A DNA stretch of 49,659 bases, taken from Longimicrobiales bacterium (GTDB taxonomy: Bacteria; Gemmatimonadota; Gemmatimonadetes; Longimicrobiales; RSA9). A program made the translations under genes and the position numbers. Location: contig JBBSJG010000003.1 of the NCBI GenBank assembly GCA_038257485.1, positions 1 to 49,659 on the forward strand, given 5' to 3'. Positions 14,709-31,017 of the stretch are shown one piece after another. Each line of letters opens with the position of its first letter. The first letter of the stretch is position 1. The notes beneath the pieces are model-generated. The model was not told where the DNA came from and made no database searches. It was given only the letters and a program-made list of their open reading frames with translations.

Positions 14709-16532
14709 CTACATGCCGACGCAGGCGCTGGATGCCGAGGTTCCGTCTCCGGAGCCGCTCATGCTCGATGTGCCCCGTTCCACCGTTGCCGTATACCCGC
14801 CGCCCGGCGTTCCCGGCGTGCGGAAGGTGATGGTTCCGTTCCCGTCCGTGCGGTACCACGGAATCCCCAGATCCGTCATCAGTGTCTTCGTCTGTGTGTT
14901 CACATGGCCGAAGCTGTTGGTGGCGCTGACACCGATGGCGATCCACTCCGGTGACAAGAGCTGCAGGTAGCGGCGGGAAACACCGTTGCAGCTGCCGTGA
15001 TGGTCCGCCTTCAGCACCGTGACGTCCATACCAGGCGCCATGTCGTACTCAGCTCCCGCATCGAACCAGTCGATTGCCGCATGCTCCGCGTCGCCGGCGA
15101 ACCACATCGAAAAGCTCGCCGAATCAGGGCCGACCAGCTTCACGCCGCCACTTCGATTGTTCGGCGTGCTCCCATTCGGGTCGGGCCGCAGCAGGTGCAG
15201 CCGGGCGCCTCCCGCCATCGTGATCGTGCAGGTAGGAGCACCTGTCACGCAGGGATCATCCGTGTCGCGGTAGATCAACTGCCCGCGACCAACTCGCGCA
15301 TTGATCGAATCGCGAAGTTCCGCCAGCGTGACGGCGGTGCCGGCGTCCTTGTTCTCGAACAAGTACCGGATCGTGATTCCGCGCGTCGTCTTGAACAGCT
15401 CCCGCAGGCCGCTGTAATGGTCGGCATGAGCGTGCGAAATGACCACGACATCGATCGTTGTGTTGTTCAGTCCCATGGCATCGAGGTGCGCGCCCATCGA
15501 TGTCACGCTCGGGCCGCCATCGATGAAGATTTTGCTCACGCCGTCCGTGATGTATGTGGCATCACCCTGTCCGATATCCAGCACACGAACCACCAGATCG
15601 CCCGGTGTTCCGCCGCCCCCACCGCCGGCTGCTTCCACCGTGACCGACGCCTCGCCCCAGACGCCGTTCGCGGCCGTTGCACGGATCTGAGCCGTTCCCA
15701 CGGCCACCGCTGTCGCCATGCCGCTCCCGCTCACGGTAGCAACCGCACTGTTCGAACTGCTCCACGTGAACGTGGTCGCCACCGCATTGCCACTCGCATC
15801 CACCGCGGACGCTGTGAACTGCTGCGTGCCGCCCGGCGCGAGCGTTGCCCCCGGAGGCGTCACCGTAACGACCGCAGGCGTGGATGACACCGCGTACCCG
15901 TCGTTCCTGGCGCCCGGCGTGCCACGGTCGCCGCCCTTGCCGAACGTGGATGTCGCGGGGTGCCAGTTCGTGCCACCCACATTCGTATTGTCCGCCGTCG
16001 GATTCGTTACGCCGCGCGTGGAACCCGCCGGCATGGCCGACCATGATACAGAATCCACCATCGCGCCCGTACCATCCCGCAGAACGACCCAGTCCGATCC
16101 ATTGGCCAGGACAATCCCAGTACCATACGCGTACGCATTGGTGATCCCGCCATTTCGCTTCGACGCCGATACTCTCGCCAGCACCTTGTGGCCGCCGGCT
16201 GCAATACTCAATGTCCCGATTGTGTGCGTCGCATCATTGCTCGACTCCAGCTTCCATCCAGCCATGTTCACCGAGGCGGTACCCGAATTGTAGATCTCGA
16301 TCCATTCGCCATTGTCATCCGTTACCGCCGACGGATCCGCCATCACCTCATTGATGATGATGCCCGACCCGCTTACCACACTCGCGAGCGGTCGACCTCC
16401 ACCCGGCGCGGAAACCGGTGCCACGACCAGCTCGGTGCATGTAGCGAGGATGAACGGAAGACCGAGAACGATGTACAAGAGGGCACTGCGTGCGAATCGA
16501 ACTTTTGGGGCGGATCCCAGGTTCTGCTGCAT
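14709..16532 (-). CDS. Secreted lamin-tail domain + Ig-like (Big_2) + ComEC/Rec2-type metallo-beta-lactamase-fold hydrolase (putative nuclease/phosphodiesterase), lipoprotein
   Basis: Lipobox-like LATC; IINEVMADP/GEWIEIYN/GTPGA.N (LTD); TWSSSN..VATVS..G (Big_2); DIGQGD, SHAHADHYSG, GDAE, HHGS, N.FGH (ComEC-type MBL). Confidence 0.85.
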   Translation of the reverse strand: MQQNLGSAPKVRFARSALLYIVLGLPFILATCTELVVAPVSAPGGGRPLASVVSGSGIIINEVMADPSAVTDDNGEWIEIYNSGTASVNMAGWKLESSNDATHTIGTLSIAAGGHKVLARVSASKRNGGITNAYAYGTGIVLANGSDWVVLRDGTGAMVDSVSWSAMPAGSTRGVTNPTADNTNVGGTNWHPATSTFGKGGDRGTPGARNDGYAVSSTPAVVTVTPPGATLAPGGTQQFTASAVDASGNAVATTFTWSSSNSAVATVSGSGMATAVAVGTAQIRATAANGVWGEASVTVEAAGGGGGGTPGDLVVRVLDIGQGDATYITDGVSKIFIDGGPSVTSMGAHLDAMGLNNTTIDVVVISHAHADHYSGLRELFKTTRGITIRYLFENKDAGTAVTLAELRDSINARVGRGQLIYRDTDDPCVTGAPTCTITMAGGARLHLLRPDPNGSTPNNRSGGVKLVGPDSASFSMWFAGDAEHAAIDWFDAGAEYDMAPGMDVTVLKADHHGSCNGVSRRYLQLLSPEWIAIGVSATNSFGHVNTQTKTLMTDLGIPWYRTDGNGTITFRTPGTPGGGYTATVERGTSSMSGSGDGTSASSACVGM

Positions 16533-16580
16533 GCTGAAACGCTCCGATCGGAGGATTAGCGACGTCTGGAAGGTCTACGA

Positions 16581-16608
16581 AGCATAGCCATCAATGCGTC
16601 AATAGCAA
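16581..16608 (-). promoter_or_regulatory. Candidate sigma70 promoter for the LTD-MBL gene
   Basis: Minus strand TTGCTA - 16 nt - TATGCT in an AT-richer spacer, about 50 nt upstream of ATG 16532. Confidence 0.4.
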
Positions 16609-16614
16609 GTTGGG

Positions 16615-19110
16615 TCATGCATGGGCCGATCGCCGTCCGGCGGCCTCCATGATGCGATCAGGTGTCGCGGGCAGCGTCCGGATGTCGATGCCGAGGTGGC
16701 GGATTGCATTGATGACAGCGGGCGCAGGCCCGTCGATCGGCAGCTCGCCCAGACCCTTGGCGCCCATCGGGCCGTGACGATAGGGCCGTTCCATGATCAC
16801 GACATCCATGGTGGGCGTGTCGAGTGTCGTCGGCACGATGTAGTTGGTGAGCGATGCATTGGCCATCGCGCCGTCCCGCATTACGACCTCCTCGAGCAGC
16901 GCATAGCCAAGTCCCTGTGCCGTACCGCCCTCGATCTGGCCGCGCACCATGACGGGATTGATCGCGCGCCCGATCTCCTGCACCGCAGTGAAGTGGATCG
17001 GCCTGACTTCGAACGTATCGCGATCCAGTTCGACTTCCGCGATGTCGCACGCCCACGCGTATGTGCCGTACGCGTCGCCTACATAGTTGACTTCATCGAA
17101 CTGCAGACCGAGCGGTGCCTCGTATTCCTGTTCGATGTGCAGCGGTCCGTTCTGCGCGAAGTGATCGGCGGGATCCATGCCGTCGAGCTGTTCGCGCATC
17201 TGTTCCGCGCAGCGCTGGAGGATGCGCCCGACCACCATGCACGTGCGGGATGCGACGGTGGGCCCGCTGTTCGGCACGTTGTCGGTGTCCGGATGCTCGA
17301 CGGCGATGCGGTCGAACGGCAGTCCGAGGGTATCCGCCACGATCTGCGCGTGCGTCGTGTGCGAGCCCTGCCCGATCTCGACAGTGCCGGCGAGGATGCG
17401 CACGCCCGTGGCGGTCGTCTCCACCGCGGCGCGCGATGCCAGCTTCCGTTCGCCGTCACCCGTGAACCCCGCGCCGTGAAAGAACAGTGCGAGGCCGATG
17501 CCGCGATTGGTCCCGCGCAGCGAGGCGCGCTTTGCGTGGTACCCACTGCGCTCCACCGCTTCGCGCAGTACATCGAGTGCACTGCCATCGGGACCGATGG
17601 TGCCGCCGGTGATCGTCGTATCACCCGGCCGGAGCGCATTGTGCTCGCGCAGCGCGACACTGTCCATGTCGAGTGCCTCGGCAATCCGCTCCATATGCGC
17701 TTCGATCGCGAACAGTGTCTGCGGTGCGCCGAACCCGCGGAACGCGCCGTTCGGCGGTGTATTGGTCATCATCGCTCGCCCGATCACGCGCACGTTGTCG
17801 CAGCGATACGGACCGCCGCAGTGCAATGCACCGCGCGACAGGACGACCGGCGTGAGCGTCGTGTAAGCGCCGCCGTCCACGAGGATGTCCACGTCCAGCG
17901 CCGTGATGGTACCGTCTCGACGGAGGCCGGTGCGATGCCGCACGCGGAACGGGTGCCGCTTCGTCGTTGCCAGCATGTCCTCAACGCGGTCATACACCAT
18001 CTTCACCGGGCGCCCCGACTTGAGTGCCAGGAGTGCTGCGTGGCACGCAAGCATTGAGGGATACTCCTCCTTGCCGCCGAACCCGCCACCTGTCGCACTC
18101 TGCACCACGCGCAGCCGTTCATCCGGCAACCCGAGCAGCACACGCAGCGCGCGCATCACGTAGTACGGACACTGCAGCGAACCGTGAATCGTGATCCCAC
18201 CATTCTCGGGCACCGCGATCACGCCGTTCGGCTCGATGTACAGCTGTTCCTGGTGACCCGTACTGTACTCACCCTCCACGATGAAGTCGGCGGCCGCGAG
18301 CGCGGCATCGACATCCCCGCGGTCGATGCGCATTCGCTTCAGCTCGACATCCGATTGTGTATAGTCCAGGATCGCGGGCTGCGTGTCGACGTCGATTTCG
18401 ACGACAGCCGCATGCAGTCGCTCCCGATCCTCGTGCGCAAGCAGCAGTACCGGCTCCGCCATGTGACGAATCTCGCGCTCGACCAGACACGGCTGATCGT
18501 CTTCGATCAGCGAGATCACGTTCAGTGCAGGGATGTCGCGGTAGTCGACAGTCGTGAAGCCCTCCGTGTCGGAAGCACTCGAACGAATCGACCGGACTGT
18601 CCCCCTGGCCGTTGCAGAGCGGATCGTGCGGCCGAAGATCATCCCCGGAAAGACCAGGTCGTCCACGTACTTCGCCGCACCGCTCGTCTTCAGCAGTCCG
18701 TCGATGCGCTCCATGGCACGGCCAACGGACGGAGCATCCAGTGCCGGGGTGACCGGAACGCGAAAAATGCCGTGCAGTGTGCTACGCGTGTCACCAGCGA
18801 CGCAATCCACGATGTCGAGGAAGACGCCCGCCGTCTCCGCATCGCGTTCCTCGAGCATTTCGAGATCGCGGAAGACCAGCATGCACGGGCGAGCGCCGGC
18901 GTCCTCCGGCCCGTACAGCGCGTCCTGCAGTGCGTCCCAGTTGAAACCGAAATGCGCAGGCAGCGGGATCGCCTGGTAGAGCGCGTGCAGCAATGATGCC
19001 TTGTCGAACACAGGCGCGCGGTCGACCCATGCCGCGTCGAAACCCGCGGCGCGCAGCGCATCGACCGCTGTGACGACGTCCTCTACGGATGGGACTGCAC
19101 GCACCATCAT
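16615..19110 (-). CDS. Barstar-like domain fused to xanthine dehydrogenase family molybdopterin-binding subunit (PucD/CoxL-like)
   Basis: aa ~1-115 carry the barstar signature DKASLL......LP.HFGFNWDALQDAL. From SVGRAMERIDG..K..G.A.YVDD onward are Mo-subunit motifs GGGFGGKE, GAFRGFG.PQ, EIGQG, GPTVASR, GQIEGG..QG.G.AL, GAKGLGE. Confidence 0.9.
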   Translation of the reverse strand: MMVRAVPSVEDVVTAVDALRAAGFDAAWVDRAPVFDKASLLHALYQAIPLPAHFGFNWDALQDALYGPEDAGARPCMLVFRDLEMLEERDAETAGVFLDIVDCVAGDTRSTLHGIFRVPVTPALDAPSVGRAMERIDGLLKTSGAAKYVDDLVFPGMIFGRTIRSATARGTVRSIRSSASDTEGFTTVDYRDIPALNVISLIEDDQPCLVEREIRHMAEPVLLLAHEDRERLHAAVVEIDVDTQPAILDYTQSDVELKRMRIDRGDVDAALAAADFIVEGEYSTGHQEQLYIEPNGVIAVPENGGITIHGSLQCPYYVMRALRVLLGLPDERLRVVQSATGGGFGGKEEYPSMLACHAALLALKSGRPVKMVYDRVEDMLATTKRHPFRVRHRTGLRRDGTITALDVDILVDGGAYTTLTPVVLSRGALHCGGPYRCDNVRVIGRAMMTNTPPNGAFRGFGAPQTLFAIEAHMERIAEALDMDSVALREHNALRPGDTTITGGTIGPDGSALDVLREAVERSGYHAKRASLRGTNRGIGLALFFHGAGFTGDGERKLASRAAVETTATGVRILAGTVEIGQGSHTTHAQIVADTLGLPFDRIAVEHPDTDNVPNSGPTVASRTCMVVGRILQRCAEQMREQLDGMDPADHFAQNGPLHIEQEYEAPLGLQFDEVNYVGDAYGTYAWACDIAEVELDRDTFEVRPIHFTAVQEIGRAINPVMVRGQIEGGTAQGLGYALLEEVVMRDGAMANASLTNYIVPTTLDTPTMDVVIMERPYRHGPMGAKGLGELPIDGPAPAVINAIRHLGIDIRTLPATPDRIMEAAGRRSAHA

Positions 19111-19559
19111 CGGATCCTGCGGAAACTGGCGTAATGGTCCGACGTGTAGAACACCTCGCCGCCCCCGCCCAGCACCAGACGCTGCGGGCCCGCGTGGTCG
19201 ACGCCCTCCGTGCGGATCACATATTCGTGGTAGTACCCGCCGCGCTGCACGGGCAGGAGCCCCTCGCGATTAGCGAAGACGCCGCCATCATTGCGGTGTC
19301 CGTCCCGCTCGCCCGACGTCGCACGCGCCACCTCCGGCGCCAGGTCGACGTCGCCACGCCATGCCACGCGGCCGTCGATGTCCCGGACCGTGACGTCCCG
19401 CACCACGAGTTCGTCCGCGGGCGACTGCGGAACCGGACCCTGATCCGCCGCCGTGCGCGACTGGACCGGCGCCGAAGGCGTGCCCGGTTCGTACGACCGC
19501 TGGACCCACAGTGCGACGATGATCGCGATGACGACGGCGACGATCTTGAGAGGTTTCAT
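19107..19559 (-). CDS. Secreted/anchored microbial guanyl-specific ribonuclease (barnase/RNase Sa, N1/T1 family)
   Basis: Hydrophobic N-terminal signal; F.NREGLLP, YYHEY (Glu), RLV.G (Arg), YTSDHY.SF (His). Its stop overlaps the start of the barstar fusion. Confidence 0.9.
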   Translation of the reverse strand: MKPLKIVAVVIAIIVALWVQRSYEPGTPSAPVQSRTAADQGPVPQSPADELVVRDVTVRDIDGRVAWRGDVDLAPEVARATSGERDGHRNDGGVFANREGLLPVQRGGYYHEYVIRTEGVDHAGPQRLVLGGGGEVFYTSDHYASFRRIR

Positions 19560-19661
19560 CCGTTCAACGTGGGCAGTACCGGCGCGGACGCGCAAGACGC
19601 ACCACGGATCGAATCGTGCACACTATGCGGGCATGACGGCAACAACGGCACGGAGAATACA

Positions 19662-20231
19662 ATGAACAACTATACAGTCGGATACATCGTCGGCAGCCTG
19701 GCAAAAGGTTCGATCAACAGGAAGCTCGCCCGCGCGCTGACCAAACTCGCCCCCGAAGGCCTCGAGATGAAGGAAATCTCATTCGCCGACCTGCCGCACT
19801 ACAGCTACGACTACGACGCGGACTACCCGCCGGTGGCGAAGGCGTTCAAGGCGGAGATCGCCGCGGTCGATGCGATCCTGTTCGTCACGCCTGAGTACAA
19901 TCGCTCCATCCCGGGCTCGCTCAAGAACGCGATCGACTGGGCCAGCCGGCCCTCCGGCACCAATGCATTCGCGAGGAAACCGTCCGCTGTGATCGGCACG
20001 TCCCCCGGCAAGATCGGCACTGCGGTCGGGCAGCAGCACCTGCGCATCATCCTCGGCTACCTCAACTCGCCGCAGATGAACTCGCCTGAAGCATACATCC
20101 AGTACGAGAAGGGTATGATCTCTGATGATCACGACGTGACGATCGCGTCGACGAAGGACTTTCTGGAGAACTACATGAAGACACTGCATGCGTTCGTCAC
20201 GCGGTTCTACCTGGCGACACCACGAACGTAG
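19662..20231 (+). CDS. NAD(P)H-dependent FMN reductase (ChrR/YieF family)
   Basis: GSL.KGS.N, TPEYNRSIPG.LKNAIDWASRP, GT...QQHLR; GGAG RBS before ATG 19662. Confidence 0.9.
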   Translation: MNNYTVGYIVGSLAKGSINRKLARALTKLAPEGLEMKEISFADLPHYSYDYDADYPPVAKAFKAEIAAVDAILFVTPEYNRSIPGSLKNAIDWASRPSGTNAFARKPSAVIGTSPGKIGTAVGQQHLRIILGYLNSPQMNSPEAYIQYEKGMISDDHDVTIASTKDFLENYMKTLHAFVTRFYLATPRT

Positions 20232-20237
20232 AACCAC

Positions 20238-20275
20238 TTGCATTCGCTCCATGACCATGGTATCGTGACCATGGA
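20238..20275 (+). promoter_or_regulatory. sigma70 promoter with tandem palindromic operators upstream of the TA module
   Basis: TTGCAT (20238-43) - 17 nt - TATCGT (20261-66) with a TGn extension; TGACCATGG repeated at 20252 and 20266, overlapping the -10. Confidence 0.65.
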
Positions 20276-20301
20276 CACGCGACAGACGGGGAGCGTTCGG
20301 G

Positions 20302-20571
20302 ATGACCTGGAAAATCAGGGAAGTGGCCGCCGGTGAGTTCAAGGCAAAGTGTCTTCAGCTCATGGACGAGGTGAACGCCAGCGGCGTGGAGCTGGTGATC
20401 ACCAAGCGAGGCAAGCCGGTCGCGAAGCTTGTGCCGATGGCGGAGCCGAAACCCGCTATGGTCTGGGGTGCGATGAAGGACCGTACGCACCTCGCCGATG
20501 GCATCGACCTCGTCAGTACGGACCCGACGGAGTGGCCGGACGATCTGGAGGACCATGAATGCTGGTGGTGA
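20302..20571 (+). CDS. vapB: Type II antitoxin, Phd/YefM family
   Basis: AGEFKAKCL.LMDEV...G.E.VITKRGKPVAKLVP. Confidence 0.9.
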   Translation: MTWKIREVAAGEFKAKCLQLMDEVNASGVELVITKRGKPVAKLVPMAEPKPAMVWGAMKDRTHLADGIDLVSTDPTEWPDDLEDHECWW

Positions 20572-20989
20572 GGCGCTGCTTCTCGACACGCACATGTTCC
20601 TGTGGCTGGTCACCGGGATGCCGGGTACCGCATCCCGGCGGTCCTGGCAGTTGATCAAGGCAGCCGCTCAACGCAATGCGCTCGCAGTGAGTGAGATCAC
20701 ATTCTGGGAGATCGCGGTCAAATCACGAAAGAAGCGACTCCACCTCGAGCCGGACACGAACACATGGCTGGCGGACGCGGCGAGGCTCCCGGGCATCGGC
20801 GTGATAACGCTCGACCGCTCCGTACTGATTGAAAGCGCGCTCCTGGAGATCCCGAGCCGTGACCCTGCCGACCGCATGCTGGTTGCGACGGCACTTCGCT
20901 ATGACCTGCGGCTGGCAACTGCCGACGCAGATGTCATCGAGGGCGCACGCTTCGTGCACCGCATGCGCGTGCTGGATGTGCGCGCGTAA
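20555..20989 (+). CDS. vapC: Type II toxin, PIN domain
   Basis: LLDTH..LW, S.ITFWEIA.K, DPADRMLVATA, L.TAD; overlaps the antitoxin end. Confidence 0.9.
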   Translation: MNAGGEALLLDTHMFLWLVTGMPGTASRRSWQLIKAAAQRNALAVSEITFWEIAVKSRKKRLHLEPDTNTWLADAARLPGIGVITLDRSVLIESALLEIPSRDPADRMLVATALRYDLRLATADADVIEGARFVHRMRVLDVRA

Positions 20990-21012
20990 ACGGCGTTCGC
21001 TTGCGCGTGTAA

Positions 21013-23685
21013 CTACTGGTCTTCCGTAAAGCTGCTCGCCAGTGCACCGAAGTCAATCGGTGATCGCGCACGCGCTCCCGGACCGCTACCCGGGTTTCGA
21101 GAATCCGACAGTGGCGCAGTGACAGGACGGAATACATCTCCGTCCCTCTCCAGCACTCCGGAATCCAGCAGCTCATCCATTGCGTCCTCGACATCGCGTT
21201 GAAATGAGCCAGGAAGGCGGCGCAGGACCTCGCTGACGGTCAACCCGTCAGCAGGAAAGGTATTCACTTCGGAAGCCACACGGCTGTAATCGTGGATGAT
21301 CGGGGTGAAGAGCGCGGTCACCACCTGGTGCGACAACAGGTTATCGCCTGCAACGCGCGGCGCCACCCAGAACCCGTTTCTGCGCACGTGGGCGCGTACG
21401 GCCCATTCGTCGCCGAATCGTTTCATTGCATCGTCATAGAACAGATGCATCCATTGCGCGTCGAACGTGCGCCGAATCTGGTCCGGCACTTCGTATGCCC
21501 CCTCCAGGCCGCTGTCGAGCACCATCCCGCCACGCCGCTCGATTTCCGATCGGAGCGCGCGCAAATCGATGTTCGCATTGGCGTGCGCAGCACAGAATGC
21601 CCGCAGGTGGAACGACGTCGCGACGGTATTCTTCTGAAGCGCTGCCATCAGGTCCCGGCTGAGCTCCCGCACGTCCGTGGACGCGTCGAGCGGGAGTGGC
21701 GCGCCACACCGGATATGGATGCGCCCCATCTGCACTCGCCCTCGCATCAGATCCCCGACCCAGCGGGCGAGCTGTACGAGCCGACCGGTATGCCTCGGGC
21801 CGCCTTCCAACTCACGCAGGAACCCGGATTCCTCTGCAACGCGGTCGTATGTGATGGAGAGCGGCAGCACAACCGCGCTCCTGCCCGTTCCCTGCACTGC
21901 GCGCAGGACGCCTCGCTTTGCGGGACGAAAACGTCGCGACCGGCTCCGCATCCCCTCAGGATAGAACGCCAATGAATGGCCCTCGCTCACCAGCGTACCA
22001 AGCTTTTCGTTTAGAGCGGGGTCGGGCTTGCCCGCGCCGCGCCGGATGAAAAAAGCGCCGGCCGCTTTCAGGACGTGTCCGACGAATGGGATATGTGCGA
22101 AGTCATCGGTTGCAGCAACGCGGGGCAGACGCAGTCCGATCCCGGGATGCGCGAAACAGAGCAGCGACGTCACCATGAAGTCCATGTAGCTGCGGTGCGT
22201 CGGTGCCAGCACGAGCACGTCGTCGGGACCCGTCTCGCGCAACGCTGCCTCGATCGCCATCTCGTCGAATGTGATCTCGATCCCGGCGAGTCGAATCACT
22301 TTGCGCATGCAGTACGCAAGTGCCCGTGATACCAGGTTGCCGTGTGGCTGCCGCAGCGCCCAGGCCGCATCCATGCCGTGCATCTGCAGCGGCGCGACGC
22401 GCGGGTCGCGTTTAAGCAGATGCTGTGATATGCCAGCCGAAACGGTCTGGATGTAGGAACGGACGTCGAACCCCTCGAGCGGCGGGAACGACGATTGGAA
22501 GTCGAAATCGAGATGTCTGAAGTAGTGAAAGCCGCTGTCCAGTGACCGAAGTGCGTCCTGCACCCGGCGGATCCGCTTTTGCTCACCGCGCTGCTTCCGC
22601 AACCGTGCGACAAATCCGGCGACGCGCAATGGCATACTGTGGTACAGCAACTCATTGACGCGAAACAGAAACGCCGACTTGCCGCGGTACCTTAACCGCG
22701 CGGGACGTTCGTGCGGATGCGCCTGAAAATATAGCTGGTGCCTGGACAGGTCGTCGAACGTGGCGGTCTGATCACGACCCGCGACCGCGTGACGCACGAT
22801 CATGGGTTGCTGCTGCCGCGGATCGAACGCGCAAGCCAGGATGCGGTCTGCGACATCGTCGCACGGCACAATGTCCGCCCGTACGTCGAGGTCGACTTTC
22901 ACAGCACGCAGATATCCTGCGCCGAGCAAAGCGACAAACGCCGCGTAGGCCGCGCGACTGTCGATCCATCCGGGAAAGGGGAAGCGGCGACAGGCGGATA
23001 TGATACTGGGTCGGACAATGGTGAGGGGCACATCGCCGCGGCGCTGCGACAGCAGTACTTCGGCAATGCACTTCGTGAGCGTATAGGTGTTCGGCTGCCG
23101 TGCTGCCGACAGAAGCGCGGGTTCGTCCGCTGAGCCATCGAGAATCGCAGCATACACCGCGTCCGCATCGAACGGCGGCGCGACCAGGGACTCGACAATG
23201 GGAACGTCCGCACCGGGATGCGGTGTCACATACGCCGTGGATACCGCGACGAGCCGCGGGACTGCAACACAACGCTGCGCGAACGCCAGCACATTCAATG
23301 CACCTGTGATGTTGGCCCGTGCCGCGGCGCCCAGACTCAGGTCGAACTGTACGGACGCCGCGCAGTGAATCACATGCGTGACCCTTTGCTGCAGTCGTTC
23401 CGCCTCCTCGTCCGCAAGGCCCAGGTCATGCTGCGTAATATCACCCGTCACGGGATGACACAGCTCGGTCCAACCGGACTCGAGCCGTTCGAAACAGGGT
23501 GACGAAGCGACTTCCTTCTCGAAGCGGTGCCCTGCTGTTCTTCGGCCTCGCGGCCGGATCACAACGTACACTTCTTCGAGGCCCAGCTCGTGTCGCCTCC
23601 GGACCAGCTCGCTGAGCACAACCTTACCGACGAAGCCGGTACCGCCCGTGAGCAGGACTCGAACGCCACGCGACGTACCGGTCAT
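21013..23685 (-). CDS. Fatty acyl-CoA reductase (male-sterility type) fused to glycerone-phosphate/glycerol-3-phosphate acyltransferase (FARAT-like)
   Basis: N-terminal TGGTGFVGK, HCAASVQF, VSTAYV, NTYTLTK (YxxxK), RPSII, PFPGWID. C-terminal PTHRSYMDF, GAFFIRR, FYPEG.RSRS, PLSITYDRV.E. Confidence 0.88.
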   Translation of the reverse strand: MTGTSRGVRVLLTGGTGFVGKVVLSELVRRRHELGLEEVYVVIRPRGRRTAGHRFEKEVASSPCFERLESGWTELCHPVTGDITQHDLGLADEEAERLQQRVTHVIHCAASVQFDLSLGAAARANITGALNVLAFAQRCVAVPRLVAVSTAYVTPHPGADVPIVESLVAPPFDADAVYAAILDGSADEPALLSAARQPNTYTLTKCIAEVLLSQRRGDVPLTIVRPSIISACRRFPFPGWIDSRAAYAAFVALLGAGYLRAVKVDLDVRADIVPCDDVADRILACAFDPRQQQPMIVRHAVAGRDQTATFDDLSRHQLYFQAHPHERPARLRYRGKSAFLFRVNELLYHSMPLRVAGFVARLRKQRGEQKRIRRVQDALRSLDSGFHYFRHLDFDFQSSFPPLEGFDVRSYIQTVSAGISQHLLKRDPRVAPLQMHGMDAAWALRQPHGNLVSRALAYCMRKVIRLAGIEITFDEMAIEAALRETGPDDVLVLAPTHRSYMDFMVTSLLCFAHPGIGLRLPRVAATDDFAHIPFVGHVLKAAGAFFIRRGAGKPDPALNEKLGTLVSEGHSLAFYPEGMRSRSRRFRPAKRGVLRAVQGTGRSAVVLPLSITYDRVAEESGFLRELEGGPRHTGRLVQLARWVGDLMRGRVQMGRIHIRCGAPLPLDASTDVRELSRDLMAALQKNTVATSFHLRAFCAAHANANIDLRALRSEIERRGGMVLDSGLEGAYEVPDQIRRTFDAQWMHLFYDDAMKRFGDEWAVRAHVRRNGFWVAPRVAGDNLLSHQVVTALFTPIIHDYSRVASEVNTFPADGLTVSEVLRRLPGSFQRDVEDAMDELLDSGVLERDGDVFRPVTAPLSDSRNPGSGPGARARSPIDFGALASSFTEDQ

Positions 23686-25646
23686 CCTGCTACGTCCCCC
23701 GTGCTTTCAGCACGATGCAATTCGGACTGAGCCGGGAAGACACCATCAGGGTCGAGCGCGGATTTCATGCGCGCACGCCATTCCATGCTCGCTGGTGACA
23801 TGATCTGAGGAATGAAGGGCATCCGGAGCTTGCCGACGCCGTGGTGATGCGAGAGCGAACCGCCCGCGTCGAGGATCTCCTGTCTCGCCAGGTTCTCGAT
23901 CTCGTGGTACGCGCCAATCGCGTCGTCGATGCCACGACCGTAGAACGCCATGTAGAAGTATACACAGCAGCCGGTCTCATAGACCTGCGTCACGCGACAC
24001 GAAACGAACGGGTTGCCGGGCAGGCCCCGCTCCCGGTGTGCGGCAAGAATTCTCGACTTGACGCGCTCGATGAGCGCACCTGCTCGACTCCAGGGCACGG
24101 ACGTCTCGAATGACTCCGCAACAATTCCATGGTGAAGAATGAAGTCGCGGATGTATGCGATCCCGAAGGTCAGCATGTAGCCCCGCCTGCCATTCTCCGC
24201 GCCGCCATTCAATCCGCGATGCCGCCGGGCAAGGCTGTGCATTCGTCGCTGCTGGTCTGCCACTTCCCTGCGCGTGCCTTCGAACACCATGGTCACCGCG
24301 ACCATCTTCTCGACATCGAATCCGAGCGGACCCGTGACAAGCCATCGCTCGGCATCCCCTCGCATGCGCTTCACGCCGCGCGGCCGCGGTTTCAGAGCCT
24401 GACCGAACTGAAATTGCAGGTTGTCCACGAGACGCACGGACGCGGGCGGCTGTGCCTCTTGCGCACAATCGTACATGAACGCAAGGCCGTCTTCGAAGCT
24501 GCGGAACAGGAGCGACGCATACTTCCGCTCGGCTGGCAGCGGAAAGAGCTTGACGACGGCGGACGTGATGATCCCCAGCATTCCTTCGCTGCCGATCATC
24601 CATTGGCGAGGATCGATGCCGATGCTTTCGCGCGGCACTGCATGCGCGCGCGTCAGACGACCAGCTGTCGTCACGACCGTCATGTCGAGCACCAGGTCCT
24701 CGATGTTGCCATACCGGTTCTTCTTCATGCCACTGGCGTTCGTGGCGATCCACCCACCGAGTGTGGAGAACTCGAAGCTGTCCGGCTCGTGGCCCATGGT
24801 GAACCCGTATTGCTCGAGCTGCGCCTGGATCTGACGCCCCGTGGCACCCGCCTGGATGCACGCCATGCGGTCGACCGGGTCGATCCACTCGATCCGGTTC
24901 ATCCGTGACATGTCGACAGAAACGATTGTGCGCGTTTCTTCGGGCAGGCAGCGGAGCGCCTCGGTCACATTGGTGCCGCCGCCGTATGCGGACAGGACCG
25001 CGCCATGCTCGACCGCCAGCACCACCAGGGACGATACCTGCGATTCCTCAAGCGGGAACACAACACAGTCCGGGATGCGCGGAAACCCGGACGACCGGAT
25101 GGCATCCATCTCGGCAACGGTATGCCCGTGGCCATGCCGAAGTCTCGTGGTATCATCTGTTGTCACCTGGCCAGCGCCGAAGATCCCGGCCAGCGCCTGG
25201 ATGAACGCGGGCGAGGCCGCACTTCGTGGAATCGGCGGCGGATATCCGATCGCCCCGGTCTCGACCTGCCCCTCGTCGACCGGAAAATCAACGCCGATGA
25301 CCCGGCGGAACCACGGCAGAAGCGAGGATAGCACTTCACCGCTGAGGCCCGGATAGCGATTTCCCGACACAGTGAGGTTCCCTCCGTCGAGACCGAATGA
25401 TGTGTCTGCGAAACCCCAGCCATCGGGACGGATCGCGTCCTCATCTGCCCCAACCGCCGGTAGGCTGGGCGGATCGATGCGCCTCGGCCTCACGTCTGTA
25501 TTAGGTATTCCCGCAATTGGTGACGAACGCTTCAAGATGCTCTCCAACTTCACATGTGGGTCCTCGAGACAGCCTGTTGGCCGGCTCGAGACCGGCCGGT
25601 CATTGTCGGAGATCGGAGACCCCAATGCAACATCCGCGCTCCCCAT
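23682..25646 (-). CDS. Alkyl-dihydroxyacetonephosphate synthase (FAD-linked, AGPS/ADPS)
   Basis: GWGF.D..F, HGHT, YGGGTNV, GHEPDSFEFSTLGGWI.T.ASGMKKN.YGNIEDLV, PASVRLVDN.QFQFGQAL, ESFETSVPW, CRVTQ.Y..G.CVYFY, GSLSHHHGVGKLR. Start uncertain (25646 or about 25556). Confidence 0.92.
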   Translation of the reverse strand: MGSADVALGSPISDNDRPVSSRPTGCLEDPHVKLESILKRSSPIAGIPNTDVRPRRIDPPSLPAVGADEDAIRPDGWGFADTSFGLDGGNLTVSGNRYPGLSGEVLSSLLPWFRRVIGVDFPVDEGQVETGAIGYPPPIPRSAASPAFIQALAGIFGAGQVTTDDTTRLRHGHGHTVAEMDAIRSSGFPRIPDCVVFPLEESQVSSLVVLAVEHGAVLSAYGGGTNVTEALRCLPEETRTIVSVDMSRMNRIEWIDPVDRMACIQAGATGRQIQAQLEQYGFTMGHEPDSFEFSTLGGWIATNASGMKKNRYGNIEDLVLDMTVVTTAGRLTRAHAVPRESIGIDPRQWMIGSEGMLGIITSAVVKLFPLPAERKYASLLFRSFEDGLAFMYDCAQEAQPPASVRLVDNLQFQFGQALKPRPRGVKRMRGDAERWLVTGPLGFDVEKMVAVTMVFEGTRREVADQQRRMHSLARRHRGLNGGAENGRRGYMLTFGIAYIRDFILHHGIVAESFETSVPWSRAGALIERVKSRILAAHRERGLPGNPFVSCRVTQVYETGCCVYFYMAFYGRGIDDAIGAYHEIENLARQEILDAGGSLSHHHGVGKLRMPFIPQIMSPASMEWRARMKSALDPDGVFPAQSELHRAESTGDVAG

Positions 25647-25665
25647 AGCATAACGGACGCCGCAC

Positions 25666-26694
25666 TCAGATGAAGTGGAGACGCTCCGGCAGAAGGTCGA
25701 ACGTCACATCGTCGCCCCCGCGGAGCGGTGCGCGACGCGCAGCGGCCGGCTCCTCGCACGTGATGCGCGTGCCGTCGGCCGTCTCAAGCACGTAGCGGAC
25801 GTCCCTGCCGAGGAACGTCGCCTGCACGACCCGCGCGCGGTGACGTCCGTCCGCGTTATGCAATGCGACGCCGTCGCTCCGGACCACAGCGCGCGGGCCG
25901 CGCGGTGCAATGTCGTAGTGCACGCCCAGTAGCGCGACGCCCTCACCGTCCGGCCGTGCATCGAGAACCGTAGCCTTGCCGAGGAAGCGCGCGACGAACT
26001 CCGTTGCAGGCCGAAGATACACGTCCGCCGGTGTGCCCTCCTGCTCGACGCGGCCCGCGTTCATCACGATGACCCGGTCCGACACCGCGAGCGCTTCCTC
26101 CTGATCGTGCGTGACGTAGATGGCTGTGATCCCGAGACGCTGCTGGAGCATGCGGATCTCGCCGCGCATGTTGACTCGCAGTTCGGCGTCGAGGTTGGAG
26201 AGCGGCTCGTCGAGCAGGATGATTTCGGGCTCGAGCACGAGACAGCGCGCGAGTGCGACGCGTTGCTGTTGCCCTCCCGACAGCTGGGCCGGGTGCCGGT
26301 CACGCTGCGCCTCGAGGCCGAGCAGCTCGAGTGCCTGCGTCGCCCGCGTTCGCGCATCAGCGCGTGCGGCGCCACGCACACGCAGCCCGTACGCCACGTT
26401 GTCCAGCACGCTCATGTGCGGGAACAGCGCGTACGACTGGAACACCATTGGAAATTCACGACGGTATGGCGGCACACCCGCGAGTGAACCACCGTCATGC
26501 ACGATGTCGCCGGACGTGGGATGCTCGAAGCCCGCGATGAGCCGCAGGAGTGTCGTCTTGCCGCAGCCGGACGGACCCACCAGCGTGCAGAAGCTGCCCT
26601 TCTCCACCACCAGTGACAGGTCGTCGACCGCGCGGTGCGTACGACCGGCCTTCGCGACGAAATCCTTCGTGACATTTCGAAGTTCAAGACTCAT
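25666..26694 (-). CDS. ABC transporter ATP-binding subunit (AfuC/FbpC/PotA-like)
   Basis: GPSGCGKTT, LSGGQQQR, LLDEP, YVTHDQEEA, C-terminal TOBE domain. Confidence 0.93.
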   Translation of the reverse strand: MSLELRNVTKDFVAKAGRTHRAVDDLSLVVEKGSFCTLVGPSGCGKTTLLRLIAGFEHPTSGDIVHDGGSLAGVPPYRREFPMVFQSYALFPHMSVLDNVAYGLRVRGAARADARTRATQALELLGLEAQRDRHPAQLSGGQQQRVALARCLVLEPEIILLDEPLSNLDAELRVNMRGEIRMLQQRLGITAIYVTHDQEEALAVSDRVIVMNAGRVEQEGTPADVYLRPATEFVARFLGKATVLDARPDGEGVALLGVHYDIAPRGPRAVVRSDGVALHNADGRHRARVVQATFLGRDVRYVLETADGTRITCEEPAAARRAPLRGGDDVTFDLLPERLHFI

Positions 26695-28340
26695 GCGCGC
26701 ACACGCATCCGCGTGACCGCCGCCTGCATGCCGCCCAACACGAGCGCGAGGATGGCGACGAGGATGGTGCACAGCGCAGCCGCGCGCGCCAGGTCGGCGT
26801 TCTCGACAAAGCCGAGAATGGAAATGGTGACCAGGTTCCACTGACCCGAAACCACGAACACCACGGCCGAGATCGCGGTGATGCTGCGCACGAATGCGTG
26901 CGCGAGGCCCGTGAACAGCGCTGGCGACGCGATTGGAAGCACGACCCTGCGCCACGTGACGCCGGGTGACGCGCCCAGGCTCGCGGAGCTCTCTTCGATG
27001 GATGGATCCACCTGCTGGATCGCAGAGCGGCCCGCTTCCAACGCCACGGGAATGCCCCGGAACACGAAGAGGACAATGATGATGACCGCAGTCCCCGTGA
27101 GATGGAGCGGCGGCGCGTTGAACGCAAGGATGTAGCCGATGCCAACGATCGTGCCGGGCAGCGCGAACGTGAGCAGGGCAAGCATCGCGAGGAGCGAACG
27201 TCCGCGGAACGCGCGTCGCACCAGCAACCACGCGATCGCCATGCCGATCGCCGCGGCCATCGGTGCCGCGACCGCGGCGAGCAGCAGTGAGTCGGCCAAT
27301 GCACCGCCTGCATGGCGGAGGGCACCCGTGTAATGATCCAGCGTGAGCCCGCCTCTCACACCCCAGACCTGTACAACGGACCCGAACAGAACGATGGCGT
27401 AAAACGCGCACACCGTGGTACACACAATCCCCAGCACGGCCGCCGCTGCGATCCGCAGTCGGGGCGACACATTCGCTCGCCGCAGCATCGGCTTCCCGGT
27501 GATCGTGGCGAACGTCGTACGCGAAGTCACGTGGCGTTGTACGAAGAACGCCGACAGTGCCGGTACCAGCAGCAGCATGGCCAGGACGGCGCCACCCGCG
27601 GTATCGAACTCGCCGGTGATGCGCAGGAACGCCGCGACGGAAAGGACGCGATAGTCGCCGCCGTGGATGAGCGGGTTGCCAAAGTCCGCAAGCGACTCGA
27701 TGAACAGCAGCAGCATCGATGACAGGATGCCGGGTACAGCCAGCGGCAGCACGATGTCGCGGAAGACGCGGCCGGGCGATGCGCCCTGGCTCTGCCCGGC
27801 TTCCTCGAGCGACGGGTCCAGCGAGGACAGCGTGCCGATGAGGAGCAGCATCGACAGCGGAAAGAACGTCAACGTCTGCACCAGCACGAGTCCGCCAAAC
27901 CCATAGATCTCGAAGCTGCCGCTGCCGAATAACGGCTCGATCAGCATGCGCGTCATGATGCCGTTCCTGCCAAGCAGCATGATCGCTGCAAGCGCGATCA
28001 TGAACGGCGGCGCGAGCATCGGCAGCATCGCAATGCCACGCGCAAGGCGTCGACCCGGCACCGCAACCATCGTGATCATATACGCCATTGCAAAGCCCGC
28101 GAGTGTGCCTGTAACCGCAACCGTCGCAGCCAGACGCAGACTGTTCCACAGTGGCACACCCGCGCCGCGGCGCGTGAGCGTTTCGCGATATACATCCAGG
28201 GTCGCCACCCCGTCGCGCAGCAGGCTCGCGCGCAGCACACTTACCACGGGGAACACCACGAACACCAGCAGCAGAATGAACAGCAGCACGATGAGCGCAG
28301 TGACCGCCGGCTCGCGGTGACGATGAACGCGGTTCATCAC
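26691..28340 (-). CDS. ABC transporter permease (AfuB/FbpB-like, duplicated)
   Basis: About 12 TM helices; two EAA loops (EEAGQSQGA, EESSASLGA); DFGNP. Confidence 0.9.
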   Translation of the reverse strand: MMNRVHRHREPAVTALIVLLFILLLVFVVFPVVSVLRASLLRDGVATLDVYRETLTRRGAGVPLWNSLRLAATVAVTGTLAGFAMAYMITMVAVPGRRLARGIAMLPMLAPPFMIALAAIMLLGRNGIMTRMLIEPLFGSGSFEIYGFGGLVLVQTLTFFPLSMLLLIGTLSSLDPSLEEAGQSQGASPGRVFRDIVLPLAVPGILSSMLLLFIESLADFGNPLIHGGDYRVLSVAAFLRITGEFDTAGGAVLAMLLLVPALSAFFVQRHVTSRTTFATITGKPMLRRANVSPRLRIAAAAVLGIVCTTVCAFYAIVLFGSVVQVWGVRGGLTLDHYTGALRHAGGALADSLLLAAVAAPMAAAIGMAIAWLLVRRAFRGRSLLAMLALLTFALPGTIVGIGYILAFNAPPLHLTGTAVIIIVLFVFRGIPVALEAGRSAIQQVDPSIEESSASLGASPGVTWRRVVLPIASPALFTGLAHAFVRSITAISAVVFVVSGQWNLVTISILGFVENADLARAAALCTILVAILALVLGGMQAAVTRMRVRA

Positions 28341-28343: not shown

Positions 28344-29351
28344 CTATCGGCCTGTGACTTCGCGCCAGCGCGCCAGGATCGCAGCCTGGCGTGCAGCGGC
28401 ATCCGTTGCATCGTACGCGACGACCTTCACGTCACGCGCTGCGATCGCCGCGTCCGAAACTTTTGCTGCAGGATTGAGCGGTACCCGATAGAACTCCGAC
28501 ATCAGGTCCTGCGCACGCTTCGTGAGCAGCCACGCGACAAAGCGCCGCCCGTGCTCCGTCTGCGGACCGCCGCGCACCACCGCCGCCGCGCCGATTTCGG
28601 ATGCAGTCCCTTCCCGCGGCACGCTCAGTACCACCGGGTAGCCGCGCTCCACACCCTTCTTCAGGATATCATGCGCGAATGCAATGCCCACGCCGACCTC
28701 GCCCAGACCCACCTGTGTCACCGCCGCCGTGCCCGAGCTATTGTAGCGATGAACCTGCGCATCCAGTTGCCGCACATACTCCCAACCCGCGTCCTCGCCC
28801 ATCAACGCGAGAATGCCGACCAGCAGCACGTATGCCGTACCCGACGTGTATGGATACGCCACACTGATATGCCCCTTGAGCCGCGGATCCAGCAGCCCCC
28901 GCCACGAGTCGGGACACTGCATCTGATGCTCGGTGAGGAATTTTTCGTTGCACGCAAACGCGATGACGCCGCTGTAGAATCCCGTCCACTCACCGTTCGC
29001 ACCGCGTGACGAGGCATCCAGCGTGAACTCGGCCTCGGGCGAGAACGGTTCGAGCAGTCCTCTCTGCGCTGCCACGATGTACTCCGGCGACGGCCCTCCG
29101 AACCATACCGACACCTGCGGATTCCCCTTCTCCGCCTCCAGCCTCGCCAGTGCCTCGCCTGCGGACAGTCGCACCCATTCCACCTCGATGCCGGTGTCGA
29201 CCGTGAACGCATCGATGTACACGGGCGCCTCCTGCGCGTCCAGACTCGTGTAGAGGTGAAGCGTGTCATGATTGGCGCTCCCGCAGGACGCGGTGGCACA
29301 CGCGAGCAGGAGGGTCAACAGTGAGGATCGTGCGGGCGCCATCGCGTTCAT
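28344..29351 (-). CDS. ABC substrate-binding lipoprotein, AfuA-like (possible sugar-phosphate binder)
   Basis: Lipobox-like TASC; RL.AEK.NP...VWFGG, P.TSGTAY, GIAFAHD, EGT..EIG. Start is 29351 or 29342. Confidence 0.8.
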   Translation of the reverse strand: MNAMAPARSSLLTLLLACATASCGSANHDTLHLYTSLDAQEAPVYIDAFTVDTGIEVEWVRLSAGEALARLEAEKGNPQVSVWFGGPSPEYIVAAQRGLLEPFSPEAEFTLDASSRGANGEWTGFYSGVIAFACNEKFLTEHQMQCPDSWRGLLDPRLKGHISVAYPYTSGTAYVLLVGILALMGEDAGWEYVRQLDAQVHRYNSSGTAAVTQVGLGEVGVGIAFAHDILKKGVERGYPVVLSVPREGTASEIGAAAVVRGGPQTEHGRRFVAWLLTKRAQDLMSEFYRVPLNPAAKVSDAAIAARDVKVVAYDATDAAARQAAILARWREVTGR

Positions 29352-29518
29352 CAGTTCATGGATTGTGGAGGCCTGTCGGATTCCGGAAGGTGTGTGCGGT
29401 AACGACTGCGGACAAGGCTGTCCCGGCGCGATCGGGTTACAAGGACGACAACGCGACATCGCCAGAGGCCCCGGTCTGGAGCAGACCGGGACCTCCGCGA
29501 ATGGCAGGCGGTCGGGAG

Positions 29519-30010
29519 TCAATCGTCGACGTTGTACCCTGGCGTTTGGGTGAGCGTGGTATCGGAGTATACGCGGGCCGCATTGTGGCCGTATACCAAG
29601 TCTCCGCCTGCTTCCCCGACTTGTACGGCGGCGAGGGCGACTCCGAGCGAACCCACAACGGTGAGTCCGCGCGCCGCCCTGCCGAGGTCACCTCGGAGCA
29701 GGCCGACGCCTGCGATGAGCAGCAACACACCGCTCAAAACAAGAAAGCGTTCGGCGGCTTCTTCGTGAGCGTGAAGCACAGCCTCGGAGACGACGGATTC
29801 AACGCGCTCCTCGTCTGCCTCGCCCGTCTTGAGGGCGAGGAACGCACTCCCTGCCAACCCTGCTGCCACGAGGAGCGGAACCATCCATATGCGGTGCGGC
29901 CTTTCTGCTCGTCGCGTAAGCCAGAATGCTGCAGCCGCAAACAATGGCAGCAGGACCGCAAGTACCAGCGGGAAATGGACAACGGCGGGGTGAAGCGGAT
30001 TGGGTAGCAT
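29519..30010 (-). CDS. DUF2231-like membrane protein
   Basis: LHPAVVHFP, H in AHEEAA, G..GGDLVY; four TM helices; GGAGGA RBS before ATG 30010. Confidence 0.75.
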   Translation of the reverse strand: MLPNPLHPAVVHFPLVLAVLLPLFAAAAFWLTRRAERPHRIWMVPLLVAAGLAGSAFLALKTGEADEERVESVVSEAVLHAHEEAAERFLVLSGVLLLIAGVGLLRGDLGRAARGLTVVGSLGVALAAVQVGEAGGDLVYGHNAARVYSDTTLTQTPGYNVDD

Positions 30011-30131
30011 CGGTGTATCCTCCATTGAAGTTCACCCTCATTCTGGAGGCCGCCGTGCTGCGCGTGAATCGGACATCCGACGCGTATGAAGGGGTCAGGC
30101 GCAATATCGGTCAAATGACGGAGGCGGGAGA

Positions 30132-30689: not shown

Positions 30690-31017
30690 CGCCAAAGAAT
30701 ACCGTCGGTGGACTTGCCGCCCTGTCGGTCTCATGTTCGGGCCCCTTCTCCTGTTCCTCGGTTCCCGCAATCTGGACCGCGTTCGATGCGGCCTGTTCCT
30801 CACCAGCCGATCCGCGGACCGACTCGGCGCTCAGTATGACGCTGGCGACAGTGTGCGGGTGTACGTAGACCCGAAAAAACCGTCCCGATCGGTGCTCCTG
30901 CAGGGCGGAACAGGCGTCGGCATTGCCGAGATCGGAGCCGGCCTGCTATTCCTGTCGATGTGGATCGCCGCAGTCGTCCGGGAGCGGCGGGCTCGTCGGG
31001 CGAACGCTACTTTGTAA
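30686..31017 (+). pseudogene. DUF3592-like remnant (frameshifted, internally deleted)
   Basis: Y..GD.V.VY.DP.KP.RSVL plus a terminal TM helix typical of the DUF3592 C-terminus. The N-terminal TM segment is split over two frames and the central beta region is missing. Confidence 0.45.

Follow-up and report, generated by a model that had tools for sequence, protein, structure and literature searches.

Can a Longimicrobiales-like member of the Gemmatimonadota make ether lipids by the animal-type route, which is based on dihydroxyacetone phosphate (DHAP)? The question is raised by two overlapping genes on contig JBBSJG010000003.1, a stretch of 49,659 nucleotides that is called the window throughout and is one whole contig of a metagenome-assembled genome, or MAG (3.8 Mb, 536 contigs, completeness 92.5%, contamination 4.7%). 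Both genes lie on the minus strand. The first (23682..25646) encodes an alkylglycerone-phosphate synthase (AGPS), which read from its first ATG is an open reading frame (ORF) of 654 aa (protein P0002). The second (21013..23685) encodes an 890-aa protein (P0001) in which a fatty acyl-CoA reductase (FAR) is fused to an acyltransferase of the glycerol-3-phosphate acyltransferase (GPAT)/GNPAT type, a fusion referred to as FARAT. According to the ORF coordinates, the AGPS stop and the FARAT start overlap by 4 bases (23682..23685, minus strand), which suggests translational coupling. An earlier note on this DNA had described the overlapping genes and quoted several motifs, including HRSYMD, all of which are present in the translations, and the gene identities that it proposed are upheld by matches to Pfam families and solved structures.

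The best reading of the pair is a translationally coupled operon, predicted to cover the opening steps of aerobic, DHAP-based ether-lipid synthesis. Using NAD(P)H, the FAR domain at the N-terminus of FARAT would turn a fatty acyl thioester into a fatty alcohol, and the C-terminal GPAT/GNPAT-type domain would acylate DHAP to 1-acyl-DHAP. AGPS, an FAD enzyme, would then exchange the acyl chain for the alcohol, yielding 1-O-alkyl-DHAP. A host reductase encoded elsewhere would be needed to convert alkyl-DHAP to 1-O-alkyl-glycerol-3-phosphate, and PlsC-type enzymes would acylate the sn-2 position. Each of these catalytic steps is predicted from family membership and gene linkage. On this basis, it is probable that FAR, DHAP-acyltransferase, and AGPS form a functional module leading to 1-O-alkyl-DHAP, with unlinked keto-reduction and saturated alkyl ether lipids as the end products.

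The alkylglycerone-phosphate synthase

P0002 has the Pfam domains FAD_binding_4 (residues 192-333, 7.8e-35) and FAD-oxidase_C (residues 371-637, 2.1e-38). In a search of solved structures, it matches the peroxisomal alkyl-DHAP synthase 4bby (E 2e-143, 482 bits), with residues 69-638 aligned to 88-653, and a second AGPS structure, 2uuu (E 1.7e-77). These matches are far above chance, and the best non-AGPS flavoenzyme in the same search is the glycolate oxidase 9qgz (3.4e-27, 98 bits). We take 4bby to be the guinea-pig enzyme and 2uuu that of Dictyostelium. The N-terminal extension specific to AGPS is present, since the 4bby alignment opens at residue 69 (chain residue 88) and takes in the motif GWGFAD. 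The AGPS of Pharyngomonas, a heterolobosean, shares 44% identity with P0002 over 575 aa.

The active site is conserved. R405, R500, T553, Y563, and H600-602 of P0002 align with R419, R515, T568, Y578, and H615-617 of 4bby without a single substitution, and these positions are nearly invariant across 30 homologues. Arg419, Tyr578, and the His615-617 loop are presumably the active-site residues, with catalytic roles assigned in the structural literature; entry 4bca differs at position 578 (4bby numbering). By these alignments, P0002 is an AGPS orthologue (EC 2.5.1.26), and the exchange of acyl for alkyl on DHAP is the activity predicted for it from its family.

The gene call in the source collection is shorter than the ORF, giving a protein of 623 aa that starts at a GTG at 25553. 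Because relatives are about 612 aa long, translation probably does not include the ORF’s first 31 codons, and the GTG at 25553 is probably the true start.

The fused reductase and acyltransferase

The FAR domain occupies residues 12-281 of P0001 (22843..23652, minus strand; Pfam NAD_binding_4, 1.3e-57), with GGTGFVG at residue 14 and YTLTK at residue 201. The acyltransferase core spans residues 489-611 (21853..22221, minus strand; Pfam PF01553, 1.7e-18), with HRSYMD at residue 497. The Rossmann motif and YxxxK of FAR, and the HxxxxD of GPAT/GNPAT-type acyltransferases, are thus all found in one protein. The N-terminus matches a solved fatty acyl-CoA reductase (7eoz, 1.3e-29), and residues 482-663 match solved glycerol-3-phosphate acyltransferases (9vuq, 1.6e-15; 8e4y, 1.1e-9). 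Among NCBIfam models, plsB (2.3e-26) ranks ahead of the PlsC-type AGP_acyltrn (2.5e-13), with all scores far under the cut-offs. Two further parts give only faint matches: the C-terminal ‘Sterile’ part of FAR is matched at E 0.049, under the cut-off, and GPAT_C at E 0.016.

NAD_binding_4 and Acyltransferase occur together in 119/119 other P0001 relatives among the matches listed (752-913 aa). DHAP as the acyl acceptor is predicted only from the linkage to AGPS. The host genome also holds PlsY and four other PF01553 acyltransferases, and since these have been kept, FARAT appears to be an extra, dedicated enzyme. A search of metagenome contigs with P0001 recovered only 8 distant loci (35-43% identity).

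Comparison with known systems

AGPS, the fusion, and the operon have all been described before and are already named by automatic annotation. JGI names relatives of P0002 ‘alkyldihydroxyacetonephosphate synthase’ and those of P0001 ‘alcohol-forming fatty acyl-CoA reductase’ or ‘.../1-acyl-sn-glycerol-3-phosphate acyltransferase’, while NCBI has only ‘FAD-binding oxidoreductase’ and ‘SDR family oxidoreductase’, respectively. The earlier note had treated the fusion of FAR and acyltransferase as a protist feature. This view does not hold, as Myxococcus xanthus provides a bacterial precedent: MXAN_1675 is described as a two-domain protein with FAR and GNPAT parts, encoded in the same three-gene operon as MXAN_1676, an AGPS that shares about 42% identity with its human counterpart, a likeness noticed by 2006 (PMC9131029; bioRxiv 10.1101/2025.10.10.681575). 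Going by the published description, the order of MXAN_1676-MXAN_1675-MXAN_1674 is AGPS followed by FAR::acyltransferase, as in the window. The window AGPS shares 51-60% identity with its counterparts in 30 sampled Myxococcota genomes. The full set of AGPS, FARAT, and an epimerase-type gene is present in 14/20 sampled Myxococcota loci, whereas the window is without this third gene (MXAN_1674 type). A further difference is the host, which belongs to the Gemmatimonadota and in whose genome neither CarF nor ElbD was found. The window pair is thus the bacterial MXAN_1676/MXAN_1675-type module minus its usual third gene, placed inside an accessory segment. What is new is the host lineage (Longimicrobiales-like Gemmatimonadota), the location in an accessory segment, and the stripped two-gene form.

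Published surveys give this novelty its context. A GTDB survey in a 2026 PNAS paper reports single genes ‘across several bacterial phyla’, and all four enzymes in 73 genomes, 61 of them Myxococcota and 12 in five other phyla (PMC13012113). The term ‘Gemmatimonad’ is absent from the main texts of bioRxiv 10.1101/2025.10.10.681575 and PMC13012113, supplements aside. Homologues of agps have also been reported in sponge MAGs of Poribacteria, Acidobacteriota, and Latescibacterota (2026 preprint 10.64898/2026.06.23.733905). A literature search for ether lipid, agps, or plasmalogen together with gemmatimonads returned nothing on the pathway, as judged mostly from listings.

The eukaryotic peroxisomal FAR1, GNPAT, and AGPS have the same three activities as those predicted here, and the alignment of the window AGPS with the solved mammalian enzyme runs from end to end and includes the active-site residues; the window, in contrast, has a bacterial operon and no peroxisome. 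Mammalian GNPAT and AGPS are reported to work as a complex (bioRxiv 10.1101/2025.10.10.681575). Protist FARAT shares with the window the order of FAR followed by acyltransferase, at 1,140 aa in Tetrahymena versus 890 aa (PMC13012113). The ElbD pathway of myxobacteria (elbA-E) likewise employs FAR and acyltransferase domains for alkyl ether lipids (PMC9131029), but ElbD contains AMP-binding and carrier-protein domains in addition, and in M. xanthus it is not partnered with an AGPS. In two Acidobacteriota loci (L019 and L020), an ElbD-like giant with FAR, Sterile, AMP-binding, carrier, and acyltransferase domains lies near AGPS, which indicates that AGPS and ElbD-type proteins can adjoin.

Relatives of the pair also occur within the same class. 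Genomes G277 and G088 have the same AGPS-FARAT core, with AGPS 52-54% identical to that of the window, but they branch with Myxococcota rows, apart from the window’s clade, and carry a CarF-like desaturase gene directly upstream (L102, G277:C6 3273-9115; L103, G088:C6 5349-10202), unlike the window. The CarF-like gene matches Pfam Lipid_desat (1e-52) and the NCBIfam plasmanylethanolamine desaturase (199 bits against a cut-off of 500), and in G277 a short-chain dehydrogenase/reductase (SDR) of the adh_short family lies downstream of AGPS-FARAT. This arrangement is a candidate compact plasmalogen cluster outside Myxococcota.

Eukaryotes can also hold the whole set in a single chain. Diatom giants such as that of Nitzschia inconspicua (2294 aa) have FAR, acyltransferase, and AGPS domains homologous to both window proteins. 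They differ in being one chain, in having extra ACBP and DegT-like domains, and in their order, FAR-AT-AGPS as opposed to AGPS then FARAT. Both FARAT domains align with the diatom protein (29% over 313 aa and 30% over 356 aa), acyltransferase motif blocks included. Four proteins (P0260, P0259, P0256, and P0301) combine FAR, acyltransferase, and AGPS in chains of 1,700-2,700 aa, some of which also have ACBP and DegT-like domains at the N-terminus; two of the four, P0259 and P0260, belong to diatoms (Thalassiosira and Nitzschia). Ciliophora were reported as the only Diaphoretickes group with FARAT (PMC13012113), and diatom-type long fusions may have fallen outside the length filter of that survey (filter: bioRxiv 10.1101/2025.10.10.681575).

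Distribution, gene order, and phylogeny

AGPS is rare in the lineage of the host. At E <= 1e-100 among species-representative genomes, it was detected in 4/301 genomes of the phylum and 8/401 of the order (the window’s genome included in both counts). Within the family, 4/72 other genomes have it, all in one genus (4/8). In Myxococcota, the count is 30/201, including a centre genome that was chosen because it carries the gene. Neither AGPS nor FARAT was found in two genomes of the host’s own genus (82% and 59% complete). At broader scale, 5055 of 8000 scored candidates belong to the P0002 family at E <= 1e-60, with 952 cluster representatives at E <= 1e-30, and 777 of 8000 belong to the P0001 family at E <= 1e-30.

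FARAT directly follows AGPS in 5/5 named Gemmatimonadota MAGs, and in 14/20 Myxococcota loci a full-length FARAT follows AGPS, with a partial FARAT in 3 more. The same order occurs in one Acidimicrobiia MAG and one Pseudomonadota MAG. There is also a second type of bacterial AGPS locus, in which AGPS is accompanied by an adh_short SDR and no FARAT (L006, L008, L013, L014, L016, L019, L020, and L022). The SDR generally follows AGPS and lies upstream in L008 and L016, and the hosts are Acidobacteriota and one MAG labelled Rhizobium sp. Three Chloroflexota AGPS loci that were fetched are without the SDR.

An AGPS tree made with FastTree comprised 151 rows: the window, 51 loci, the host’s own GlcD-like paralogue as the outgroup, and 98 of 150 cluster representatives. 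Only representatives spanning query residues <=170 to >=600 were retained, and L005 and L021 were dropped as partial. In this tree, P0002 falls with the AGPS rows. The groups recovered are a Myxococcota-rich bacterial clade that contains the window, a clade of Acidobacteriota, Chloroflexota, and Poribacteria, a basal AGPS-like group, a group of long fusion proteins including two diatoms, and a clade with the heterolobosean Pharyngomonas. The backbone is poorly resolved, as the authors of the PNAS paper also report (bioRxiv 10.1101/2025.10.10.681575). Eukaryote rows fall outside the window’s bacterial clade, and no tree puts this clade closer to eukaryotes than the Myxococcota rows. The earlier note had expected the locus to be relevant to the origin of AGPS and FARAT. 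Its bearing on that matter is small, as both proteins sit in a Gemmatimonadota subclade of the Myxococcota-rich group with the eukaryotes outside.

A quick IQ-TREE analysis of 55 rows, consisting of the bacterial clade and 8 outgroup rows with the other 96 rows omitted, places the window among 7 rows that form a purely Gemmatimonadota clade (SH-aLRT 100). The other Gemmatimonadota rows (G295, G277, and G088) form a second group with two Myxococcota rows (97). Constraining all 10 Gemmatimonadota AGPS to be monophyletic was 40.1 log-likelihood units worse (p-AU 0.0395). Because the group in this approximately unbiased (AU) test was named after the tree was known, the result gives only a weak hint of two origins. 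In a FARAT tree of 31 rows, the window groups with a pair of Longimicrobiales-labelled proteins (100), and the three Gemmatimonadota rows of the second group fall within a Myxococcota clade (96). Since both trees give the same two placements, AGPS and FARAT appear to share a history. Together, the trees show at least two module lineages within Gemmatimonadota, one of them with a CarF-like desaturase gene.

A strain-variable segment

The pair lies in a strain-variable segment (19560..25665) for which a same-genus genome, G306, has no counterpart at the syntenic site. Apart from AGPS and FARAT, the segment holds an NADPH-dependent FMN reductase family gene and a Phd-PIN pair. The FMN reductase gene (19662..20231, plus strand, 189 aa; Pfam FMN_red 9.5e-37, on a longer ORF) has no evident link to the pathway. 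The Phd-family antitoxin (20302-20571, plus strand; NCBIfam phd_fam 2.9e-9) and the PIN-domain toxin (20555-20989, plus strand; Pfam PIN 6.6e-11) form a type II toxin–antitoxin pair (20302..20989) that is convergent with FARAT, with stops 23 bp apart.

The segment is bounded by genes that are neighbours in the congener. Downstream is a secreted barnase-like ribonuclease (19107..19559, minus strand; Pfam Ribonuclease 7.1e-14), 78% identical to its counterpart on G306:C143. Upstream is the ATPase of an ATP-binding cassette (ABC) transporter (25666..26730, minus strand; ABC_tran and TOBE_2; 77% identity to G306), whose stop is 19 nt from the AGPS ATG. Positions 528-1177 of G306:C143 correspond to window 18769-19418 (73%) and positions 1329-3011 to window 25727-27410 (78%), and in G306 the RNase start directly abuts the ATPase stop. 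With both flanks side by side on this contig, the window therefore holds about 6.1 kb extra.

How the difference arose can be read in more than one way. The segment has no integrase and no tRNA, and its edges show no flanking repeats. The GC content of the segment (0.624) lies at the 10th percentile of the genome (0.638 +/- 0.011); as this composition is not anomalous, it is uninformative about recent transfer. None of the 120 other loci fetched contains a homologue of the FMN reductase, antitoxin, or PIN gene, and the DNA likeness of the closest relatives to the window is limited to 21137-25424, with unrelated flanks. The RNase-barstar/ABC junction is absent from other family members. AGPS is 68-72% identical to that of the same-family carrier genus, much as orthologous xanthine dehydrogenase is between genera of the family (67-69%), so ancient presence followed by losses and relocation is as possible as transfer. 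Likewise, the 6.1-kb difference may equally be a gain in the host or a loss in the congener. A more speculative possibility, which we hold only tentatively, is that a minimal AGPS-FARAT cassette with neither a reductase gene nor CarF moves with a toxin–antitoxin pair, making ether lipids a horizontally exchanged accessory trait in soil Gemmatimonadota in which a housekeeping reductase completes the pathway.

Missing partners and alternative explanations

The earlier note concluded that this bacterium can make 1-O-alkyl glycerolipids. The genes for AGPS and FARAT are indeed there; what the claim lacks is a linked reductase gene. Elsewhere, the operon usually continues with an NAD-epimerase/dehydratase, a putative alkyl-DHAP reductase. 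Among 29 other loci examined together (20 Myxococcota, 8 Gemmatimonadota, and 1 Acidimicrobiia), such a gene directly follows FARAT in 20/29 and lies upstream in 1/29, and an adh_short SDR takes its place in 1/29. Of the remaining 7/29, one is a CarF-AGPS-FARAT locus whose stretch holds nothing more, one is ended by a contig edge, three have only AGPS, and in two FARAT is partial. Three further close relatives have the epimerase-type gene after FARAT in 3/3 cases (one cut by a contig end); a fourth, L023, is counted among the 29.

The desaturation step is also without a candidate. CarF/PEDS1 (Pfam PF10520) had no match in the host genome, 92.5% complete, or in any of the genomes of the window’s AGPS clade (0/5). 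The same search was positive in G277 and G088, directly upstream of AGPS, and this control validates it. The earlier note had suggested looking for both an alkyl-DHAP reductase and CarF/TMEM189 in the genome, and neither orthologue was found. With no CarF/PEDS1 found, the products would be saturated alkyl lipids (plasmanyl or neutral alkylglycerol) and not plasmalogens. A second, ElbD-like protein with FAR and acyltransferase domains was not detected either, P0001 matching only itself in the host genome (E <= 1e-5).

Several observations weigh against a complete and functional pathway. No epimerase-type gene is linked at the locus, where the Phd-PIN pair is found instead, and no orthologue was found in the 92.5%-complete genome, the best match having 32% identity (E 8.6e-16). 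Nor is an adh_short SDR linked at the locus, unlike in 9 other loci with such an SDR beside AGPS; 12 host paralogues of the AGPS-linked SDR have 25-33% identity. The C-terminal tail of FARAT (about the last 35 aa) diverges from its relatives, although tails vary in the nearest subgroup too, and the point of divergence looks like a rearrangement breakpoint. Specificity for DHAP over glycerol-3-phosphate (G3P), formation of alcohol and not aldehyde, and expression are all predictions. The precedent is weak as well, since deletion of MXAN_1676 reportedly causes a minor drop in ether lipids, with ElbD as the main route (PMC9131029). Lastly, the state of the assembly counts against the reading: the MAG is fragmented and has 4.7% contamination, and among the contigs listed from public runs, none spans 19559/19560 or 25665/25666.

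Some of these points could be explained by a truncated, non-productive module. With only two of the three operon genes brought in by the segment, alkyl-DHAP would go unconverted and no ether glycerolipids would accumulate, and the pair would be in the course of being lost or serve only as a source of fatty alcohol. The third gene, which 20/29 other loci and all three additional close relatives possess, is absent from the window without an epimerase-type orthologue elsewhere in the genome; the FARAT tail is divergent; and the pair was not found in either same-genus genome searched. However, both ORFs are intact and full length, and all catalytic residues checked are kept. Many host SDRs could stand in for the missing enzyme, G088 (CarF-AGPS-FARAT) is likewise without a linked reductase in the stretch fetched, and a MAG that is 92.5% complete could have the gene in its missing part. 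Truncation is the main rival reading but is considered unlikely.

Somewhat less plausible still is that the same folds perform other chemistry. The acyltransferase would then act on G3P or 1-alkyl-G3P (AGPAT-like), or FAR would give aldehyde or the alcohols of wax esters. The M. xanthus domain is labelled ‘AGPAT/GNPAT-like’ without an assay (bioRxiv 10.1101/2025.10.10.681575), JGI names several homologues ‘1-acyl-sn-glycerol-3-phosphate acyltransferase’, and every NCBIfam acyltransferase match is far under its cut-off. Yet AGPS needs acyl-DHAP, and this acyltransferase is fused or linked to AGPS across phyla, including diatoms that have FAR, acyltransferase, and AGPS in one chain. The domain also scores better against PlsB/GPAT (sn-1) models and structures than against PlsC models. 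A DHAP-acylating module remains the preferred interpretation.

An artefact of assembly or binning, in which a 6.1-kb segment of another organism was mis-joined, is highly improbable. Depth is about 3-6x in the run that holds most of the stretch, neither edge is bridged by any listed contig, and contamination of the MAG is 4.7%. One contig of run X1 does span the AGPS/FARAT overlap (22569-23760). The run with most of the stretch is labelled soil metagenome and may be the source sample of the MAG. A contig of run X2, with 18 differences and hence from a relative, joins 24952 to 25558 and omits 605 bases of the 5' part of AGPS.

The contig nevertheless fits its bin. Its flank genes are 78-87% identical to those of a same-genus genome, and for the xanthine-dehydrogenase flank gene the best named match (87%) is a MAG labelled Longimicrobiales bacterium, with further named matches labelled Longimicrobiales, Gemmatimonadaceae, and Gemmatimonadota. 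The closest named relatives of AGPS (72%) and FARAT (65-66%) have these same labels, so that flanks and pair alike point to the same family or to Longimicrobiales. A chimeric contig is unlikely given that both flanks are syntenic with one congener contig. The break falls exactly between two genes, an artefact would take two precise mis-joins, and the GC content of the segment is within the spread of the genome. The weakest alternative, a GlcD/D-lactate dehydrogenase-type oxidase in place of AGPS, shares the FAD_binding_4 and FAD-oxidase_C architecture and draws on a sub-threshold glcD match, but it is ruled out, in keeping with the identity that the earlier note had preferred, by 482 bits for AGPS against 98 for glycolate oxidase, a glcD score of 148.5 bits against an NCBIfam cut-off of 567.9, an AGPS-specific N-terminal region that aligns from residue 69, and a GlcD-like paralogue in the same host that is 29% identical to P0002 and forms a long outgroup branch in the AGPS tree.

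Implications for ether-lipid producers

The locus extends the DHAP-based ether-lipid module to Longimicrobiales-like Gemmatimonadota, a group that is common in soil but seldom cultured. It also informs the evolution of the module within the phylum, which has at least two lineages and, in a variable segment, a stripped two-gene form. There is a modest bearing on which soil bacteria produce alkylglycerol ether lipids, and on how far present-day distributions allow a ‘myxobacterial origin’ to be read for the eukaryotic pathway. If the reading as an exchanged cassette were true, aerobic Gemmatimonadota would be an unrecognised soil source of 1-O-alkylglycerol biomarkers. This is no new kind of system; it will not surprise a specialist, and its use lies in extending the module at the level of the phylum and in illustrating the two-gene form.

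Other features of the contig

The ABC ATPase that borders the segment is the last gene of a set on the upstream flank that also comprises a permease (26691-28340; BPD_transp_1) and a solute-binding protein (28344-29522). An 827-aa ORF at 25666-28149 extends too far, since the ABC ATPase accounts for no more than its last ~355 residues, and the permease is encoded by the same DNA in another frame. On the other side, the RNase gene is followed by barstar (18757-19110, minus strand; Barstar 4.4e-13). The barstar frame has no stop and continues in frame into the gene for the xanthine-dehydrogenase Mo subunit, forming a single ORF (16615-19110). In G306, barstar has a stop and the dehydrogenase is on a different contig, and the read-through could be a rearrangement junction or an assembly error.

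A scan for promoters and terminators around the genes gave nothing exceeding shuffled sequences, and no tRNA or Rfam family was found anywhere in the window. The remaining stretches at 7065-19110 and 34560-47631 have ordinary gene content. The contig carries a purine/urate catabolism set, consisting of DUF6986, a urate oxidase N-terminal family protein with a cytochrome c domain, an amidohydrolase, and the FAD and Mo subunits of xanthine dehydrogenase. A chemotaxis set (a methyl-accepting chemotaxis protein, CheR, and a CheA-like protein) and a SusC/SusD pair are also present. A second strain-variable stretch (29279-35135) measures ~5.8 kb, compared with ~0.9 kb in the congener contig G306:C118, and includes a DUF2231 membrane protein, a LuxR-type regulator, and a histidine kinase.

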